Shown piece after piece: positions 699-21,641 of a stretch of 64,000 nucleotides of DNA (positions are counted from its first letter, which is position 1; each line of letters begins with the position of its first letter). The translations under genes and the position numbers were made by a program. The stretch is from a virus, in the IMG/VR virus record IMGVR_UViG_3300032738_000111, positions 1-64,000 of that record. The stretch is one strand, 5' to 3'. The notes beneath the pieces are model-generated. The model saw nothing but the letters and a program-made list of their open reading frames with translations, ran no database searches and was not told the origin of the DNA.

Positions 699-1637
699 TT
701 AGTCAGTCCCCTTTGTAGCTCTGTTTGCTGCGGCCTCTCGTGCTCGTTTCCGCCTTGCCCGTAAGCTCGTCTTGGTACGTGTTCGCATCATCTTGATATG
801 CGCGCGGGCCTCTGGTTCATACGGCTTACCCGGTATGCTACTGCTGTGCGTCTCCTCCGCGTAGAAGTCATCCAATTCGACCGGGCGCACCTTGGCAGAG
901 GTCAGGTAGCCGTGAGGTATCAGTAGTTGCGTATTGTTCGCGGGGAATACATCTCCATCGCTTGTCAGGTGTTCCCTCCCGTGGTCAACGCCCATCTGCC
1001 GCAGGCTACGCAAGATGTCCCCAGGTATATAGCCAGCCTCACGCAAGCTCCGTATCGAGTCATCGCCATTGTTGCTGTCGCTCTTGCTTATCTTGGCACC
1101 GGTAAGCTCATGGCGTATGGTCGGCATATACTGCTGGCATGGCGTCTTCCAACCTAGCGCGCAACAGAAGTAGTCGTAAAGCTCCGTCTGCGCTATCAAG
1201 TCGGCCCCTCTGTAGAATCCGCCAATCTCCATTGTGTGGTCATCAACAACGCTGGTGAATGTAAGCCAAGGATGGTATGGGTGTTCAATTGCCGGTGTTG
1301 CATCCATGTTGGTAACCGCGCGGTTTGTGCCCCAGAAGCGTGGCACCTGCGGGACTAGCCTCTGGTTCGCTTCCCAGTGTGCATCGGCGTTCCTCGTGCT
1401 CCACATCACATCGTCCGGCGACAACCCCAGCCAAGCCAAGTCCTCAATGTAGTGTTCAACAAGCGTGGCTATGGAGTGGCACCCCTTCGCGTATTGCTTC
1501 AAGTAGTACGGCGCGTCGTGCAGGTGCAAGATGAACTTGCCACCAGTGTGAAACGCCTTTGCCCAGTTGGCTTCGATGATCCGGATATGCCCGATGTGCA
1601 GGTCGTGATATATTGCGATGGAAAAGCGTGTGTTCAT
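699..1637 (-). CDS. Divergent glutamyl-tRNA synthetase / GluQ-like class I aaRS catalytic-domain protein (no anticodon-binding domain)
   Basis: MNTRF...LHIGHIR (HIGH), GGKFILHLHD, DLAWLGL, VVDDHTMEI..YRGADL, GAKISKS (KMSKS), SIRSLREAGY. Collinear with the GluRS Rossmann fold. Start placed at MNTRF. Confidence 0.8.
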   Translation of the reverse strand: MNTRFSIAIYHDLHIGHIRIIEANWAKAFHTGGKFILHLHDAPYYLKQYAKGCHSIATLVEHYIEDLAWLGLSPDDVMWSTRNADAHWEANQRLVPQVPRFWGTNRAVTNMDATPAIEHPYHPWLTFTSVVDDHTMEIGGFYRGADLIAQTELYDYFCCALGWKTPCQQYMPTIRHELTGAKISKSDSNNGDDSIRSLREAGYIPGDILRSLRQMGVDHGREHLTSDGDVFPANNTQLLIPHGYLTSAKVRPVELDDFYAEETHSSSIPGKPYEPEARAHIKMMRTRTKTSLRARRKRAREAAANRATKGTD

Positions 1638-1659
1638 TGAAAACCCCCATTCGTTTCGT

Positions 1660-1699
1660 GTTGAAGAAAGAGGGGCGGCAGCCGATAGACCGCCGCCCC
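1660..1699 (-). terminator. Probable intrinsic terminator/attenuator after prepilin gene
   Basis: GGGGCGGC...GCCGCCCC stem followed by TCTTTCTT on the minus strand. Confidence 0.55.
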
Positions 1700-1720
1700 A
1701 TCCGTGTCTATTGGCGTGGT

Positions 1721-2437
1721 CTACGGTTGGGCTTCGATGGCCGCCCACCAGTTCAGGCCCGACATCATTTCGCCCTGAGTCAACCCCTTCACATGGCCGT
1801 CGCGGAAACACATATTGTTCCTGTTGCCATGCGCGGCGTACTTTGCCTGATACGGTTGTGCTGGCGTGCCCTTCTCCGCCCCCTTAGGCTCGTAGAAGTA
1901 GGTGGCGTGGCCGTAGAAGTCGCAGCTATCAGGGGATACCATCAGCTCAGGCGGGATGGATATGTCTGCTACCATCATCGCGTTCGCCGCCGACAGCCCC
2001 ATGTGTTCATAGACATTGGTCGCATCTATATTCCACTGCGGGGTCTGGCCGGGCCATGAGCCGCCGCCAGCCCAGGGCAGCCCGTAGGTTGTCTTCTTGC
2101 CCTTGCCGTCGCATACGAATACGGGATTGATGTCGTTCGTCCACCTGTTCCTGATAGGCAACCCATAAGGTCCGAGTTTGTGCAGGCCATTCGAACCGGG
2201 GTAGTCGGTATCTCCAGCATTCCAGGTAAGCATCGGGCCGAACCCGTCATGGTCTCCGCAGTATTGGATAAGAGCCAGTCCAATCTGCTTGAGGTTGCTG
2301 ACACAGGTTGCCGTCTTTGCCTTCTCCCGCGCCTTTGCGAAGACGGGGAAGAGGATCGCCGCCAGCACCGCGATTATCGCGATGACTACCAGCAATTCAA
2401 TGAGCGTAAAGCCGAGTTTTGATTTGTAGGCCTTCAT
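1721..2437 (-). CDS. Prepilin-type N-terminal cleavage/methylation protein with DUF1559 and H-X9-DG C-terminal motif
   Basis: [47 protein letters not shown]; C-terminal [15 protein letters not shown]; GGAGAG RBS. Confidence 0.93.
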
Positions 2438-7296: not shown

Positions 7297-8559
7297 TTAG
7301 CTTGCGGCGGGTGTGGCGGTCGGTTCAAGTAGGTGCCCTAGTTCCGCAAGGGCTTCCTGCTCCCAACGGAGGCGGACTAGGGTGCCCTCGTTAGACGTTG
7401 TCCAGTAGTGACATTCATCGCAGAGGCAGATACCGTTTGCAACCTCGCTACGGAGTTCTGCGTATTTAGCGAATGCGGCCTTATGGTGGACGTGAAGGTC
7501 GTTACTGTGTTTGCTGAAGCCCTCGCCGCAACGCTGACAAGTATAGGCGTCGCGCTTGCGACAGTTGCGCTTGAACGATTTCCCTTCCTTGGTGGACTGC
7601 CAGTGATTTCTCTCGCCCGAACCCCCCTGCCAATTATGAACCTTATCACCGCGATAGTGCTTACTTCGATACTCAGCATAGCATCGCTTGTGGTTGCAAA
7701 ACTTTCTGTCCCCGTCACATAGAAATACCTCAAATTCCCTTCCGCAGTTTTCGCAGGTCAATTTTGGGTGTATTGTTTTGACAATCTGTTTCACGCGATT
7801 AGCACTATCCCACAACCCGCGATGCTTCGGGTTACAGAAGACATTGCCACTTTCAGGAATCTGGCCGGGGTGGCGCTTCACAGGCCCTTCGCACCAAGCG
7901 CATTCGAGCTGGAGTTTTCCGCCCTTCCAGCTATGGCTCTCCTTACCACTACTCGTACCCGGTAGGCGGCCCCGCTTTTCTATTTCGTGGGTACGGAGTG
8001 CAACATAGACATGGCTAAGGGAACAATCCAAGTCATTAGCAATGGCAACCATAGTCTGTGTAGCATAAGCTCGTTCAAGCCATTCCTTGTTATTTAGTTC
8101 GGGTATACGAAAGAGTTTTGGGCCGTGCTTTCGGTACTTTTCGCGGCGACCAATCTTAGCGCATTCAGAACGGCAATACTGGCGTGTGCCAGGCGCTGGC
8201 TTGCCACAGATAGGGCACGGCGTGGGTTCTGCAGGAATAACGCCCCTCTCTCTACGCTCTACCCCATTCGCCTTGAACGCGTTATAGAGCGTTGATGTAG
8301 CTATGTGTAGCTTTTGTGATACAGCGCCGAGGGACATCGGGCTCCGATAAAGACTAACGGCTTCCGCGAAAAGCTCTGGGTCTCTCCAGATGGCGCTCCT
8401 ATTCCGGCCTAGACGATTCATTATGCCGAACTGCTTGAGTGCGCGCCCAACGGTTGTAGTGCCGCAACCTAATTTAGAAGCGATGCTAGCTGCGGAATAT
8501 ATAGTATAGGCATCCTTGAGCCATTCTTTGTCATTCAGTTCAGGTATCCGAGAGGCCAT
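7297..8559 (-). CDS. Multidomain HNH endonuclease (repeated HTH and zinc-binding modules)
   Basis: Two RIPELNxKEWL-HTH modules, several CxxC...FC modules, HSWKGG/HNWQGG, C-terminal RDAYTCQRCG..LHVHH..NGICLCDECH. Confidence 0.85.
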   Translation of the reverse strand: MASRIPELNDKEWLKDAYTIYSAASIASKLGCGTTTVGRALKQFGIMNRLGRNRSAIWRDPELFAEAVSLYRSPMSLGAVSQKLHIATSTLYNAFKANGVERRERGVIPAEPTPCPICGKPAPGTRQYCRSECAKIGRREKYRKHGPKLFRIPELNNKEWLERAYATQTMVAIANDLDCSLSHVYVALRTHEIEKRGRLPGTSSGKESHSWKGGKLQLECAWCEGPVKRHPGQIPESGNVFCNPKHRGLWDSANRVKQIVKTIHPKLTCENCGREFEVFLCDGDRKFCNHKRCYAEYRSKHYRGDKVHNWQGGSGERNHWQSTKEGKSFKRNCRKRDAYTCQRCGEGFSKHSNDLHVHHKAAFAKYAELRSEVANGICLCDECHYWTTSNEGTLVRLRWEQEALAELGHLLEPTATPAAS

Positions 8560-9612: not shown

Positions 9613-10326
9613 CTACGCATACACAGTCGGCGGCACGGGATTGGAATGGGCAACTGGCCGTAATGGTGTCGGGTCGCTTCGCTGCTTTTCCGTAGCCACC
9701 AGCCGGATGCTGATAGTCGTCGTGTACGATTCGTCGTAGTCCATTGAGCAGACCGTTACGAACTCTTGGTCGCTGTGACCAGACAGGCCAGTTATGCCGG
9801 CAGTTCCTCCATCAGTCGTTGAGAGTATTTCGACTTGGCCTGATGGACTGTCTGACAAGGTGCTTCGCATGACATTATGAGCAACTACCGGACTATAGCT
9901 AGGCGTAGTGTATGTCGTCCATGTGTGCTGATATGCTATTGGTTCCCCCCAGGGCTTGGGCCAGGTTCCGTCGTGCCAGAAATACAGATTAGCCTTCTCT
10001 GCCTTGAATGCGACTTGGACTAGGCCATAACTGTCGGCGACAATGTCAGCCTGTCCGCTTTCCTGCGCATCCCCCGTATCCGCCTTGTAGAACGTAAACC
10101 GCTTGTCCTCGTTGGGCGGTCTTTCGAGTGTGATGCTGGAATTGGCATCTATGCGGAAGCTACCGATTGGCTTCCCGTCAATCGTCACCTCCGCGTCGCA
10201 CGATACACCCCTACTGTTCCTGAGTACGAGCGTGTACTGCTTGCCATGATTCAGTTCTACATACCCCGACTCTTTTTCGGTACCTTCTGGCACCCTGACG
10301 CTGAAACTGTTCAAGTACATTTTCAT
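9613..10326 (-). CDS. Beta-rich hypothetical protein in a self-contained transcription unit
   Basis: 237 aa; AAGGAG RBS; flanked by promoter and terminator. Confidence 0.75.
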   Translation of the reverse strand: MKMYLNSFSVRVPEGTEKESGYVELNHGKQYTLVLRNSRGVSCDAEVTIDGKPIGSFRIDANSSITLERPPNEDKRFTFYKADTGDAQESGQADIVADSYGLVQVAFKAEKANLYFWHDGTWPKPWGEPIAYQHTWTTYTTPSYSPVVAHNVMRSTLSDSPSGQVEILSTTDGGTAGITGLSGHSDQEFVTVCSMDYDESYTTTISIRLVATEKQRSDPTPLRPVAHSNPVPPTVYA

Positions 10327-15527: not shown

Positions 15528-17627
15528 CTACACTACCGGCAATAATACACAACGACAGTTGATAATGTTCCCCGCGCTACCTTTCGGGTCGCCGGGATGG
15601 TCGAGTGCCTGCCCTGATACTATGAACGGCTTGTCTATCAATACCGCCTGCCCATTAGCAGCAACGTGGTTATACCTATCTCCCGGCTTGAGTCCGCGCA
15701 CCTTCTCATCAAGCGCGGTCAGCCACTCCTTCTTCTCTATGTCGTTCTGCCGATAGCCCTCGAGCGCACCCTTGTTGTTCGCCCCGACCGTCTCAGTCCG
15801 TGCTACCCGCTCGGCCTTATAGCGTTCGTACCCAGGCTCCATGTCGCGAATGCGGCTTGCCATTTCCGGTACGCCGACGCCTTCGTTGACCGCCTCCTGC
15901 AGCACCACGCGCAGGTCAGTGAACATAGTCTCTGGTAGCGTGGTAATCTTTAGCCGCTTCTCCCCAAGCCACTGCATTACCTCGGGTCTGCCTATGTCCC
16001 AAGCCCCGCCGCCGATGTCGGCCAAGGCACGCTGCCCACCTAGCTCCAGCCCCTCTTCAACGTGCGGCATGATCCCCGCTACCCAGCGCTCGGCCTGCTC
16101 ATCGGTGAATATCTCGCGCAGGATACTGTCCGGCGTCGGCACCGTAGCCTTGAGGTGCTTGTCGTCCTCCTCGGCAAGCGCGGCCAGTACTTCGTCCAGT
16201 GCCTCGATATAGAGCGCGGCCATCGTCTTGTGGAAGCGTTCCTCTAGCAGGCGCAGGCTATTGTCAAAAGCCCTCCAGTATTCGACATGCTGCGCGCTAC
16301 CAAACTCCCCGAACCTGCCCTTGTTCTCCGGCGGCGATTGCTTGATATGCCAGGGGGTTGCGGCAGCCTTAGGCGGTGTCGGCTCCTGCTGCGTTGCCTC
16401 CGGTTGCGGCACCGCACCTAGCGGCACCATGTTCATCGGCTGCCACAGCTTCTCGGCGTCGCCACCAAACGGTTCGCGGCCCGTCTCGGCACGGGCTTCA
16501 TCGGGGGTCAGATAAGGCACCCCTACCGCTGGCTGCAACCGTTCCGCCTGCTCATTCCTGCCCTCCTGCAAAGCCTCCACGTCAGAGAAGTCGGGCCTCA
16601 GCTCAAGGTCATTGCCATAACGCGGCACCAACTTCTCATTCAGCCTGCCGAAGGTGTACTTGACCTCAGGCACAATACAGGACTTCCAGTAAATCTCTTC
16701 TTCCTCGTCAGCGCTGGCATAGCTGGCGTTATCAAGGATACCAACGCGGATAGGCGGCACATGGAAGGCGGCGATGATTTCCTCGCGCGTCATCTTGGCT
16801 AGCTCGATGTACTGCCCGTCACGGGAGTTCTTGCCTAGCTCCTGGTATTTGAGATTCTTGCCAGCGATAAACGTCTTGCCCGCCGCTGCATCGCCGCCAT
16901 AAGTGGACTCCCACGCCGCCCGCATTTGCTCCAGCAGCTCTGGCTTTACCTCCCCTTCCGCTGAGAGCATCCCCGACGGGACTGCGCCGCGCTTGAGGAA
17001 CTCATAATTGAACTTGCGCACCCTGTTGTCCAGGTTGATGGACGTTTCAATGGGCTGCACTGCGGACTGCCCGTACAGGTCATTGAGGGGATTCCAGCGG
17101 CGGAAGTGGATTACCTGATGCGGGTCGTAAGGTATTTCGTTCCGCTTGTCGCCAGGCGTTGGGTTATAGACGTACCTCTGGATGGCTTCCTTAGTCGCGA
17201 CAATCCTCACGCGGTCAGGTCGCAGTGGGAAGATGGCGTCAACCCTGCTGCTTGGTGTAGCGCCGCCTACCAATAGCCAGTAGGAATCGCCAGCCAACCT
17301 GCGATAGCCGACCGTCGCCCACATCAATCCCGCCCAGTCATCATCTGCGTTGACGCGGGCAAGCAGGTCAAGCAGCGGGTGTTCCTCTACCGGCTCGCCC
17401 TTCCTGAAGAGGCCATACGGTACCGCCGCGCAGTCATTGCAGATGGCTTCGATGCAAGCAGCTACCCAGACATTGAGCTGGTAGGCCTGAAGGTAATTCT
17501 CTTGGTCTATGGCGGGGCCAGAGTCAGTGATTTTCCAGAGGCTGGCGGCGATAAAATCGGATAGGCTATCAGCAGCCTTAGCGGTGCCACCGAGGAATCG
17601 GCGCAGCCAGAACCAGTCGCGGGCCAT
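15528..17627 (-). CDS. Portal protein (HK97 family) fused to MuF/SPP1 gp7-like head morphogenesis domain
   Basis: PLRPDRV, VIHFR..NP.NDLYGQS, FHVPP..VG; C-terminal AERVARTE, KKEWLTALD, GNIINCRC. Confidence 0.92.
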   Translation of the reverse strand: MARDWFWLRRFLGGTAKAADSLSDFIAASLWKITDSGPAIDQENYLQAYQLNVWVAACIEAICNDCAAVPYGLFRKGEPVEEHPLLDLLARVNADDDWAGLMWATVGYRRLAGDSYWLLVGGATPSSRVDAIFPLRPDRVRIVATKEAIQRYVYNPTPGDKRNEIPYDPHQVIHFRRWNPLNDLYGQSAVQPIETSINLDNRVRKFNYEFLKRGAVPSGMLSAEGEVKPELLEQMRAAWESTYGGDAAAGKTFIAGKNLKYQELGKNSRDGQYIELAKMTREEIIAAFHVPPIRVGILDNASYASADEEEEIYWKSCIVPEVKYTFGRLNEKLVPRYGNDLELRPDFSDVEALQEGRNEQAERLQPAVGVPYLTPDEARAETGREPFGGDAEKLWQPMNMVPLGAVPQPEATQQEPTPPKAAATPWHIKQSPPENKGRFGEFGSAQHVEYWRAFDNSLRLLEERFHKTMAALYIEALDEVLAALAEEDDKHLKATVPTPDSILREIFTDEQAERWVAGIMPHVEEGLELGGQRALADIGGGAWDIGRPEVMQWLGEKRLKITTLPETMFTDLRVVLQEAVNEGVGVPEMASRIRDMEPGYERYKAERVARTETVGANNKGALEGYRQNDIEKKEWLTALDEKVRGLKPGDRYNHVAANGQAVLIDKPFIVSGQALDHPGDPKGSAGNIINCRCVLLPVV

Positions 17628-17636
17628 AGGGTAACC

Positions 17637-18989
17637 TCAGATTACGTCAAACCAAAGCTCAGTGAACTCGCCCTGTGCCAACTGTGCGAATGCGCCTGAC
17701 ATGGCATCCACCTGGTCGTCATGCGCGCCGAATGGAAATAGCGCCACCTCGTCAAGGAAGTCACTTATCCACGGCCCGCTCACCAGCTTGACATTGCCAT
17801 GCCACGCCTGGCTAGACACGGGATTGGCACGGACCTCTTTGCTACCAGTGCTGCGGACGCCGCAAAAGTTATACCCGTCGAGGATACGGCGGGTGTAGTG
17901 GTCTATCGTATTGACGCCACTACTGCCAGGCTCTTGCTCCATCGCAATTTCTACATCAACCCCATCGCGCTCAGCGGTCTGGCGGATAAGCGCTTCGACT
18001 TTGCCCGGCGCTGCTTGAGTACGTTTTACATCACAGATGTAGTAAGTCGCAGCATCGGTACGGTCTAGGTGACGCCCCATGAGTACGCCAGCAGTATAGT
18101 CAGGGTCCTTGCCGGGCTTGGGCTCCGTTGCCGCCAAGTCCCAGAAGCGTACTCGACGCATTTCCACAGGCGCGACATCCACTGGCGCAAACCAATCGCG
18201 CTGAAACTTGTTTCCTGTCGCCTCAATATCCCAGTCGCCCTTCTTCAACTGCTCGCGGGTAACAGGGTCAAGTTCGTCCAGCGCCTTGTTATACTCCTCA
18301 ACATCAAGGTGGGGGTTGTCCTCAAGGCAGGCTGGTATGAATACGCGCTCTTGGCTACGCCCCTCGACAATGAACCGTTGTTTTACCCATTGATGTCCTT
18401 GGTCGCCTGGGTTGCTTGCTGAGCGCATACGCAACGGTACTGCTGCGCCCTCAAGTCTCCGCAGGCGAGAGAATAGGTAGCGATATTGGCTCTCACTAAA
18501 CTGCGTCAATTCGTCGAAAGCAATATACTGGAAGGCCGCTGACTGATACCGAAACTTGTCCTTCTCGGCATCCAAGTAAGCAAAGCTCAAAGTAGCCCCC
18601 GAGGGGAATATCCAGGTCTTAGCCTTGTCGCTCCAGCGTGCGTCGGTTGGCCCCAGCCACTCCTGCGCCCTGTCCATCAGGGCCTCAGGCAGTATCAGGT
18701 CAGTATAGGTGCGCCGAAAGATGATGGCGGCATAGCTTGGAATATCAACGTACTGCAATGCGGCCATGAGTAAGGCGTCAGACTTGCCACCGCCTGCCGC
18801 GCCGCCGTAGAAAGCCTCGCGGCAAGTTAGCCAGAGGAATGCTTGCTGCTTAGGTGTCGGGGTGTGCGGGCAGTACTCACTCAGCCGCGGCGTCAGGTGC
18901 GCCTTCAGCTCCGGCCTCGACTGCACCAGATTCGACCAGTATTCGGAGGACTTCTCCAAGGTGTCCACTGCTTGTGTCGATGTTGCCAC
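17637..18989 (-). CDS. terL: Terminase large subunit
   Basis: YGGAAGGGKS (Walker A), IAFDE (Walker B), WDLAAT and HDDQVDA nuclease motifs. Confidence 0.95.
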   Translation of the reverse strand: MATSTQAVDTLEKSSEYWSNLVQSRPELKAHLTPRLSEYCPHTPTPKQQAFLWLTCREAFYGGAAGGGKSDALLMAALQYVDIPSYAAIIFRRTYTDLILPEALMDRAQEWLGPTDARWSDKAKTWIFPSGATLSFAYLDAEKDKFRYQSAAFQYIAFDELTQFSESQYRYLFSRLRRLEGAAVPLRMRSASNPGDQGHQWVKQRFIVEGRSQERVFIPACLEDNPHLDVEEYNKALDELDPVTREQLKKGDWDIEATGNKFQRDWFAPVDVAPVEMRRVRFWDLAATEPKPGKDPDYTAGVLMGRHLDRTDAATYYICDVKRTQAAPGKVEALIRQTAERDGVDVEIAMEQEPGSSGVNTIDHYTRRILDGYNFCGVRSTGSKEVRANPVSSQAWHGNVKLVSGPWISDFLDEVALFPFGAHDDQVDAMSGAFAQLAQGEFTELWFDVI

Positions 18990-19365: not shown

Positions 19366-19454
19366 GATTGGCTACTGCCAATTCTCACTTTCCCTGCTTC
19401 TACTTCTGCTTCTCCGGCTTGTCATATGGGAACGGTTCGCCCGTGGCGTCTATG

Positions 19455-19997
19455 TCAGTCGCGCCACTCATATTCGCACTGAGGGCATTTGTGGAGGCCT
19501 GAAACCTGTTCGCCTGCGGTTGCTTGTGTATCCGCGTCGTCTGATGGGAACGGCCCCGGTGTGGCTGCCTGTTCAAGCAGCGCGTTTAGCTCGGCCTCGT
19601 CGAAGCTGACTGGCAGGCACTCATCCTCCTGCAACTTCACAAGTAGACCCGCAAGGACAGCATCATCATCCTCTGCGAAGTTGCTCAGGTTGTTATCATC
19701 AATCAGATACGCGGCGGCCTCAATATCCGAGCAATCCCACACGTCGCAGCGAACCGTCTCCCAACCTATGCGTTGCGCAGACTGGACTACCGCGTGGTGT
19801 GCGATAATCCGCATGGTGCTGGCCTGCACGACCACTGCGGAGCGTTGCCCATAGCGCAGGAGACTTTCGTCAAGCCGGAGGAGTTGGGATTCGGGATGAT
19901 TGCGATAGTTCTGCGGCCACGGTTTCAAGTCTGCTATCGCTACATCGCGAATCTCACCCCGTGGCTTATGCTTGTCAAAGGTCAGTTTCTTCGCCAT
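19455..19997 (-). CDS. ParB/Srx N-terminal domain protein with C-terminal zinc ribbon
   Basis: LKPWPQNYRNH..SLLRYGQ..IIAHH..DNNLS; CPQCEYEW. Confidence 0.8.
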   Translation of the reverse strand: MAKKLTFDKHKPRGEIRDVAIADLKPWPQNYRNHPESQLLRLDESLLRYGQRSAVVVQASTMRIIAHHAVVQSAQRIGWETVRCDVWDCSDIEAAAYLIDDNNLSNFAEDDDAVLAGLLVKLQEDECLPVSFDEAELNALLEQAATPGPFPSDDADTQATAGEQVSGLHKCPQCEYEWRD

Positions 19998-20291
19998 TGA
20001 ACATTCTCTCGTTGCCAATCAAGCTGTCAGCCCGGCGGGCGACCCCATCAAGCTCCCCGGAACCTCTTACGGGTGTCCTCCGTGTCTAGGCTGGTGTTGT
20101 TCGTTCGCAGGAGCACCGGGCTGAGTTTTGTTCGTTATCATTGTCCGCGTTTTTCCCACCGGACAGTCATCGCCGCTCACCGTCAAGGACTATTACGGGT
20201 GGATAGTCGGGTGCGTTGGGCAGGGCTTTTACCTTGCACCCTATGCGGTGCTACTTCACCGTTTCCTAGCCCTGAAAGGTACGGTGAGGAA

Positions 20292-20366
20292 TGGTCGCCG
20301 CTAATGGGCAATGATACTGCCGGAGCAGCCATCGCCACGCGGGTGAACCCGATTCGGCGGCGGCAA
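20292..20366 (-). ncRNA. Possible Y-shaped CCA-ended tRNA-like RNA
   Basis: TGCCGC/GCGGCG closing stem plus ACCA; two internal hairpins; no canonical tRNA loops. Confidence 0.3.
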
Positions 20367-20380
20367 TATGTTGCTTTGCA

Positions 20381-20455
20381 TGGTGAGGGCAATTGGATTT
20401 GAACCAATGACCGGCCGCTTATGAGGCGGCTGCTCTTCCGCTAAGCTATGCCCTC
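20381..20455 (-). tRNA. tRNA with CAT anticodon (likely tRNA-Ile2, otherwise elongator Met), encoded CCA
   Basis: GAGGGCA-TA-GCTTAGCGGAAGAGC-A-GCCGC-CTCATAA-GCGGC-CGGTC-ATTGG-TTCAAAT-CCAAT-TGCCCTC-ACCA full cloverleaf. Confidence 0.92.
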
Positions 20456-20466
20456 GTATGGATGAT

Positions 20467-20520
20467 TGGTCTGGGCGGTATGTTCCTAAGACATACGCTC
20501 ATCTATTGAGCTACGCCCAG
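20467..20520 (-). ncRNA. T-armless tRNA-Leu(TAG)-like RNA (54 nt)
   Basis: CTGGGCG-TA-GCTC-AATAGAT-GAGC-G-TATGT-CTTAGGA-ACATA-C-CGCCCAG-A-CCA; perfect acceptor, D and anticodon stems; no variable or T arm. Confidence 0.75.
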
Positions 20521-20807
20521 ACCATGAATGCGCAGAAGGCCCGGCGCAAGCCAGACCCTCGCTTTCCCTTAGCCGAAGCACCGGGGTAGTTATTGCACGT
20601 CTGCGTTCGCCGCCCTGGATTGGTTACCTGGACGGGGAACGATCTCCTCCTACGCATGGCAGGGGAGGCAATGGAAATGATTCTCCTCAAAACACATAGT
20701 TTTCTAGTGTGTTGTGAGGAGAATTGTCAATCGGGGTGCGAGGCGGTGGGAGCAAGACCAACGTGGTTGCCTGTCCGGCAGCGTCTGTCCCGAAGGCAGC
20801 GCAGCCC

Positions 20808-21077
20808 CTAATTCTCTGCAAGTAACGGCTGGTGGCGTTGGCGGGCCTCTCGGCGTAACCAATCCCGCATTTCGTTCCGGGCGATAACTCGGCAAAGAGC
20901 AAGCGGCTTCCGCGCCCGTGCTATCTGTTCACTCCTAGCAAACACTTTCACCCGCGCCTCCTGGAGCAAGTCCTCCAAGTCCTCGGGCTGATACTCTTCG
21001 GCAATAGCGCGGCAGGCCTCTTCGGCGATGACTTTCTCATATTCCACTGGCAATTCCTTCCGCGCTTTCTCCTTCAT
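20808..21077 (-). CDS. Sigma70 region-2-like protein
   Basis: EDLEDLLQEARVKVF...LCRVIARNEMRDWLRRE, matching the ECF sigma2 pattern. Confidence 0.75.
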   Translation of the reverse strand: MKEKARKELPVEYEKVIAEEACRAIAEEYQPEDLEDLLQEARVKVFARSEQIARARKPLALCRVIARNEMRDWLRREARQRHQPLLAEN

Positions 21078-21498
21078 CCGAAAGGATGACGAGCGCAGAG
21101 GCCATCTTTATGCACGCGCGGGATAAAATTCTGGAAATGGTTGACTGGTTCACCCGCAACATTCTCCCCACCTGCTCCTGGATAACCTTCTCACGATAGC
21201 ACAGAAGGATAACTATCTGCCACTTTGTGGGTAGTGCGCCAATGGCTTTGTCGAGGTCAGCTTTGATACAAACCAATTCTACATAGGCCGCCTCTCCGCT
21301 TACGCCACCGCTAGATAAACCGCTATCATCAGATACGTCGAGCGTGCAGCCTAGATAACATGCCTCGGCGAGTTCTGAGTACCGATGCAACCAACCACGC
21401 ACCCTTCGCTCCGCACAAGCCTGAGGGTCAAACAGGTCTCTCATCGGAAACGGGCGGCTCCAGTAGTCGTCGGAAGTTTCCACGGTGTCTCCCGTCAC
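21037..21498 (-). CDS. Sigma70 region-4 / RinA-ArpU-like late transcription activator
   Basis: DLDKAIGALPTKWQIVILLCYREKVIQEQVGRMLRVNQSTISRILSRA. Confidence 0.8.
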   Translation of the reverse strand: MTGDTVETSDDYWSRPFPMRDLFDPQACAERRVRGWLHRYSELAEACYLGCTLDVSDDSGLSSGGVSGEAAYVELVCIKADLDKAIGALPTKWQIVILLCYREKVIQEQVGRMLRVNQSTISRILSRACIKMASALVILSDEGESAEGIASGI

Positions 21499-21641
21499 CC
21501 AACCAGAAATGTCTCAGCCAACCAGTAGCCAAGCACGAAGCAGGCATAGAGCAAGCAGCCGAATGTCACCGCCGCGAAGAAGAGCTTGGTGCTTATCAGG
21601 ATGCAACTCCAGAGGAAGCTGCCGACGGTGCGGAGGGTCAT
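21495..21641 (-). CDS. Small membrane protein
   Basis: Manual translation MTLRTVGSFLWSCILISTKLFFAAVTFGCLLYACFVLGYWLAETFLVG; 4-nt start/stop overlaps on both sides. Confidence 0.55.
   Translation of the reverse strand: MTLRTVGSFLWSCILISTKLFFAAVTFGCLLYACFVLGYWLAETFLVG

Follow-up and report, generated by a model that had tools for sequence, protein, structure and literature searches.

Mitochondrial tRNAs without a T arm carry a TV-replacement loop of 6-12 nt, which allows an L-like shape, and are served by a dedicated EF-Tu. The 54-nt phage element described here is like the T-armless mitochondrial tRNAs of nematodes in having an acceptor, a D and an anticodon arm but no T arm, and a D loop without GG. 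However, the nematode tRNAs have a replacement loop of 6-12 nt where the element has a 1-nt connector, and they form conserved gene families that function in decoding, whereas the element is a phage singleton. In addition, the body and the anticodon of the element disagree and its CCA end is paired, unlike in the nematode tRNAs. T-armless mitochondrial tRNAs have been reviewed in two articles (PMC4394434, PMC9976931).

A further comparison is provided by tRNAs with which phages escape or disarm defences that cleave tRNAs, such as the T5 tRNA against PARIS or retron effectors, as described in three reports (PMC11464382, PMC11555353, PMC10264068). The element resembles these tRNAs in being phage-encoded, tRNA-derived and altered in its anticodon loop. 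The defence-evading tRNAs are reported to be full-length and chargeable, to replace cleaved host tRNAs and to have no arm missing, whereas the element lacks its T arm, and we found no link of the element to any defence. In our literature search, no paper dealt with phage tRNAs that lack an arm or with truncated phage tRNA pseudogenes. According to the sequence comparisons presented below, the element derives from a tRNA-Pro(UGG), and we take it most likely for a defunct leftover of that gene rather than a novel type of RNA.

The source record is a complete viral genome of 78,240 bp with direct terminal repeats, and the window, meaning the whole stretch of DNA that was analysed, is its first 64 kb. 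Four runs from a single freshwater metagenome study contain the phage sequence, and most genes of the phage lie on the minus strand. The element sits inside a gene-free stretch of 790 nt (20019-20807), which has two small sigma-factor-like genes on one side and a packaging block on the other. A homologous tRNA array is found in a 70.5-kb viral contig, IMGVR_UViG_3300014656_000025 (L167), whose record (G001) is 79% complete. The neighbourhood is composed of the following features.

15528-17627, portal gene, packaging block
17637-18989, large terminase gene, packaging block
19455-20018, ParB-like gene, packaging block, on the side of the gene-free stretch opposite to the sigma-factor-like genes
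20219-20290, minus strand, non-coding element X, 85% identity over 72 nt to L167 7311-7379
20381-20455, minus strand, intact tRNA-Met(CAT), from ARAGORN, Rfam (69.4 bits) and the alignment with L167
20456-20466, minus strand, 11-nt spacer between the element and tRNA-Met, of the same length as in L167, with 4 of 11 bases different
20467-20520, minus strand, 54-nt T-armless tRNA-like element with apparent anticodon UAG and encoded ACCA, from sequence, fold and alignment with the L167 tRNA-Pro (7468-7542)
20521-20524, minus strand, 5′ leader TGGT, which pairs with the ACCA, from sequence and fold
20611-20669, minus strand, non-coding element Y, 80% identity over 59 nt to L167 7629-7687
20808-21077, minus strand, small sigma-factor-like gene with Sigma70_r2, on the sigma side of the gene-free stretch
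21037-21498, minus strand, small sigma-factor-like gene with Sigma70_r4, on the sigma side of the gene-free stretch

The tRNA-Met(CAT), which starts 11 nt downstream of the end of the element, is the only standard tRNA that ARAGORN and Rfam detect in the phage. Regions 2 and 4 of sigma-70 are divided between two overlapping small genes, of which the region 4 gene comes first, just upstream of the non-coding tRNA region. A TTGACA box followed by a 17-bp imperfect inverted repeat (20690-20735, minus strand) could be a candidate promoter and operator for a transcript with Y, the T-armless element, tRNA-Met, X and the packaging genes. At a distance of 19 kb from the element, the phage encodes a protein resembling the catalytic domain of GluRS/GlnRS (699-1811, minus strand; PF00749, E 1.5e-18, with only part of the domain matched), and because of this gene the phage may tamper with translation. 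A prepilin/DUF1559-type gene (1721-2437) adjoins the aaRS-like gene. Among the 27 phage ORFs scanned, none was EF-Tu-like.

The element itself, read on the minus strand, consists of the following parts, all taken from the sequence.

20514-20520 with 20471-20477, minus strand, 7-bp acceptor stem (5′ and 3′ strand, respectively)
20512-20513, minus strand, U8 and A9
20508-20511 with 20497-20500, minus strand, 4-bp D stem
20501-20507, minus strand, D loop AATAGAT, without GG (GGTGGAT in L167)
20496, minus strand, G26
20491-20495 with 20479-20483, minus strand, 5-bp anticodon stem
20484-20490, minus strand, anticodon loop CTTAGGA (CTTGGGA in L167, G35A being the sole difference)
20478, minus strand, single C connector
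20478/20479, minus strand, deletion junction, between which 21 nt of L167 (variable loop and whole T arm) are missing
20470 and 20467-20469, minus strand, A73 and CCA

The initial annotation had described a 54-nt T-armless tRNA-like RNA with perfect stems, U8-A9, a CU-UAG-GA loop, A73 and CCA, and this description can be read directly from the sequence, with 16 of 16 stem pairs being Watson-Crick. The sequence and the predicted fold also bear out its observation that TGGT and ACCA can pair to give an 11-bp terminal inverted repeat, so that the closing helix comprises 11 bp. The minus-strand sequence is predicted to fold into a three-way junction of -31.6 kcal/mol (z -6.6). The plus strand is predicted to fold at -34.3 kcal/mol (z -8.5), which is automatic because every stem pair is Watson-Crick. 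None of 200 shuffles folded as well.

The shape of the element alone is not significant, because a bare three-stem descriptor that allows G-U pairs is expected about 1.07 times per shuffled 78-kb genome. Adding an NCCA end reduces this expectation to 0.0175 per genome, and restricting the pairs to Watson-Crick gave 0 occurrences in 400 shuffled genomes. The element lacks two features of a canonical tRNA, namely the T arm and the G18-G19 of the D loop. As the initial annotation anticipated, standard ARAGORN misses the element, and it is likewise undetected by cmscan with the Rfam tRNA model RF00005 even at E<=10. In its metazoan-mitochondrial mode ARAGORN calls a 'TV-loop mtRNA-Leu(tag)' at the element, with a shifted register in which the acceptor stem is unpaired to obtain the loop; the same mode makes 7 further spurious calls in this phage genome.

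To place the body of the element, we searched with a pattern in which the acceptor 5′ strand and D stem are separated by 28-58 nt from the acceptor 3′ strand with ACCA. This pattern matched 19 viral and 47 bacterial loci, and 64 of the matches (19 viral, 45 bacterial) are full-length tRNA genes of 75-78 nt. ARAGORN called tRNA-Pro for all 19 viral matches (19/19), and the bacterial full-length matches have Pro-type anticodon loops. Two pattern matches (L203 and L228) were short, G+C-rich and without tRNA-like arms, and were taken as chance. The C1-G72 pair, A73 and Pro-type acceptor and D stems of the element are common to annotated tRNA-Pro genes, which makes the body that of a proline tRNA. 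T-1 and G-2 are frequent in tRNA-Pro leaders, so that part of the pairing of TGGT with ACCA is inherited. In six tRNA-Pro(UGG) genes from Melainabacteria/Obscuribacterales MAGs (L185, L199, L201, L206, L214, L222), the D loop is without GG (AGCAGCA or similar) and the T loop is GGCAGCA, not the usual TTCRANY, which looks like a joint change of the docking loops.

The initial annotation had called the element tRNA-Leu(UAG)-like. Its proposal of a tRNA-derived RNA that truly lacks a T arm holds, whereas the leucine identity does not, given that the body matches the 64 full-length Pro-type genes. The element shares the anticodon UAG, G37 and the discriminator A73 with phage and bacterial tRNA-Leu(UAG), but has a body very unlike that of the phage tRNA-Leu(UAG) genes among the fetched loci. 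The tRNA-Leu genes of the fetched phage arrays, unlike the element, start with G1 and have a 3-bp D stem and a long, GG-containing D loop. A long variable arm is a normal feature of bacterial leucine tRNAs, and the element is without one. The apparent leucine anticodon arises because G35A changes the UGG anticodon to UAG. A short variable loop in place of this long arm occurs, together with a Leu-type D arm, in the 77-nt tRNA-Leu(UAG) genes of five viral contigs (L169:6089-6165, L176:3568-3644, L177:3155-3231, L178:2141-2217, L179:1756-1832).

The array in L167 consists of a tRNA-Met(CAT) (7382-7455), a tRNA-Pro(UGG) (7468-7542), an 11-nt spacer and a second tRNA-Met(CAT) (7554-7627). The minus strand of the window at 20522-20382 aligns with L167 7466-7627 (E 4e-37), and the downstream tRNA-Met genes of the two phages are identical at 69 of 74 positions (93%). 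The L167 copy of this tRNA-Met has a 1-72 mismatch, with A opposite C72, where the window copy has G1-C72. Compared with the L167 tRNA-Pro, the element shows one clean 21-column gap, which spans the variable loop and the whole of the T arm. The two are identical in the acceptor stem, A73-CCA, U8-A9 and D stem, and they have the same D-loop length and anticodon-loop frame. Outside the gap they differ by six substitutions, all G:C to A:T. The D loop accounts for three of these (GGTGGAT to AATAGAT) and the anticodon for one, G35A (UGG to UAG); the other two alter both sides of one anticodon-stem pair, which is C31-G39 in L167 and U31-A39 in the element. A second phage tRNA-Pro (L229) also has C31-G39, indicating that U31-A39 is derived in the lineage of this phage because L229 and L167 share the other pair. 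In the leader, L167 has only GT opposite the TGGT of the window, which has two more leader bases paired to the CCA; both leader differences from L167 extend the closing helix. The initial annotation had envisaged, as evidence against its own reading, that relatives carry a full tRNA-Leu in this slot and that the deletion is unique to this assembly. In substance this is what L167 presents, as a tRNA-Pro and not a tRNA-Leu.

The two phages are related mosaically, through scattered genes of 40-78% protein identity. The 79%-complete L167 record holds no match to the window terminase, and the aaRS-like protein was undetected in it. Common to both phages are the array, the two flanking non-coding elements and one 237-residue gene of no known family. 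The ORF of this gene (window 9613-10326, minus strand) is 78% identical to L167:6599-7306 and has no Pfam or PHROG family; it directly precedes the tRNA array in L167, and in the window it lies 10 kb from the array, beside a DNA methylase. Element X forms two hairpins with one compensatory change each and has no Rfam match, and its identity (85%) is higher than the DNA-level identity of the shared protein gene (76%). X lies downstream of the array in the window and upstream in L167, whereas Y lies upstream of the array in the window and directly downstream in L167. Because X and Y are found on opposite sides, the array and its flanks are circularly permuted between the phages. The upstream tRNA-Met of L167 has no remnant in the 88 nt before the element, where similarity is not above that of shuffles. 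From its sequence, the array locus looks rearranged, with the upstream tRNA-Met missing and the order of X and Y permuted.

Searches for further relatives returned little. When IMG/VR was probed for the shared tRNA-Met and for element X, L167 was the single match and no third carrier appeared, and patterns built on the D arm and anticodon loop of the element had no match in IMG/VR or JGI metagenomes. Several patterns found no second copy of the element in IMG/VR, JGI metagenomes or 185,579 genomes, and no other T-armless fold with an NCCA end was present in 1.7 Mb of fetched loci. A BLAST search against 50,697 phage records matched the tRNA-Met only, apart from one insignificant antisense tRNA-Pro match. 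The best terminase relatives in IMG/VR and metagenomes (62-64% protein identity) have no tRNA or similar element upstream of their packaging genes. Two distant loci (L037 and L040) have a tRNA-Pro near the terminase that is not specifically similar to the element. The ParB-like neighbour has relatives at 70-78% identity, and the one IMG/VR locus that its protein matched comes without upstream sequence.

The initial annotation took the absence of mismatches in the stems as a sign of selection rather than decay. The probability that random changes leave all stems Watson-Crick is 0.004-0.007 for six changes and 0.14-0.17 for two. G18A and G35A are the only changes that must be later than tRNA function, and for this reason the clean stems can be explained without selection on the truncated element; they are inherited from a working tRNA, and two random changes spare them with p of about 0.15. 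Judging from the sequences, constraint certainly acted along the lineage of the element at some time, because the stems are perfect across six differences and one pair changed on both sides. This constraint could be ordinary tRNA function before the deletion, and it could also extend beyond the deletion. Divergence from L167 is 6/54 for the element, 5/74 for tRNA-Met, 4/11 for the spacer and 15-20% for X and Y, which places the element between the working tRNA-Met and the spacer, X and Y, although the counts are too small to separate these parts.

The stems that stayed intact through six changes (p about 0.005 if unconstrained) speak for a reading in which selection would have preserved the truncated tRNA-Pro as a tRNA-like RNA with no part in decoding, acting as a nuclease or toxin decoy, an uncharged-tRNA mimic or the substrate of the phage's own aaRS-like enzyme. 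The compensatory pair in the anticodon stem, the encoded CCA, the strong predicted fold and the PF00749 gene are consistent with this reading, as are known phage tRNAs that counter tRNA-cleaving defences (PMC10264068, PMC11464382, PMC11555353). We nevertheless regard it as rather unlikely, given that the element has no second copy or conserved family in the collections searched, that its sole relative, L167, keeps a normal tRNA-Pro, and that ancestry accounts for the stem pattern. Moreover, the CCA end is buried in the 11-bp helix, a proline body with a UAG loop fits no known nuclease target, and the aaRS-like gene, besides being 19 kb away and undetected in the 79%-complete L167 record, does not link to the element, nor does any other of the supporting points. 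For the decoy, mimic or carrier roles raised in the initial annotation we found nothing in support. A different role, which we consider unlikely, is that the stable three-way junction serves tRNA-Met, either as a 5′ leader that guides or protects precursor processing or by insulating it from the upstream transcript. The 11-nt spacing to tRNA-Met is kept in both phages and the two leader differences lengthen the closing helix to 11 bp, within a 790-nt non-coding leader that has other conserved structures; yet the spacing has just been passed down from a tRNA-tRNA array, and the full tRNA in L167 does the same job, leaving truncation with no specific advantage.

A role at the level of DNA, in which the 11-bp terminal inverted repeat and inner hairpins form a recombination, packaging or priming site, would fit a fold that is strand-symmetric and stronger on the plus strand, as well as a position upstream of the ParB-like, terminase and portal genes. 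It is highly improbable, however, as stems made of Watson-Crick pairs alone give a symmetric fold in any case, each arm is accounted for by descent from a tRNA gene, and phages with related terminases have nothing similar at that place. The chance that an assembly or sequencing artefact removed a T-arm hairpin is next to negligible. Hairpins may drop out in assembly, but four Logan assemblies, from four runs of one study that may include the source sample, are identical at the contig level to the IMG/VR record over 19400-21600 at 10-19x. The junction is not an assembly artefact because all of these agree exactly, which upholds it as real, and the six accompanying substitutions are not assembly errors. 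The other objection foreseen by the initial annotation, a junction unsupported by reads, is thus not borne out at the contig level.

The explanation that we consider probable is that the element is a tRNA-Pro(UGG) pseudogene, which would still be transcribed in the tRNA-Met precursor and then discarded. It combines clear homology to a working tRNA with lesions, namely the 21-nt T-arm deletion, G35A and the loss of GG, and it carries UAG where a functional tRNA-Pro has an NGG anticodon. The main identity elements of E. coli ProRS are G35/G36, A73 and G72. The T arm is used by bacterial RNase P, EF-Tu, the CCA enzyme and the ribosome, and in a normal tRNA the D-loop GG docks on the T loop. Any one of the three lesions alone should disable a bacterial tRNA-Pro. 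A proline body with a leucine anticodon, a 1-nt connector and a CCA within an 11-bp helix bears no resemblance to an adaptor that could be charged.

In the scenario that we favour, an ancestral phage array would have contained a tRNA-Pro(UGG), an 11-nt spacer and a tRNA-Met(CAT). One internal 21-nt deletion in the lineage of this phage would have taken the variable loop and the whole T arm, fusing the anticodon stem to the 3′ acceptor strand via a single C. In addition, UGG would have become UAG by G35A, and the D loop would have lost the GG that docks on the T loop. The clean stems would be inherited from the working ancestor, with later changes too few to break them. The remnant is probably transcribed with the downstream tRNA-Met in the leader of a late packaging operon, where it may fold as a stable three-way junction that is discarded once RNase P frees the tRNA-Met, and it would be neither charged nor decoding. 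Phage genomes usually shed useless DNA, which speaks against the pseudogene reading and, together with the helix-lengthening leader changes, the perfect stems and the aaRS-like gene, keeps the bolder reading of a retained RNA alive.

Our analysis indicates how one deletion within a phage tRNA array can produce what deceptively passes for a flawless "minimal tRNA", whose apparent leucine identity is here the accident of one anticodon mutation, and this calls for caution in scans that seek armless or rewired phage tRNAs. As a pseudogene, the element matters little. If it has retained a function, it would represent natural tRNA miniaturisation in a bacterial virus, and a selected T-armless RNA would be the first armless tRNA derivative functioning outside mitochondria.
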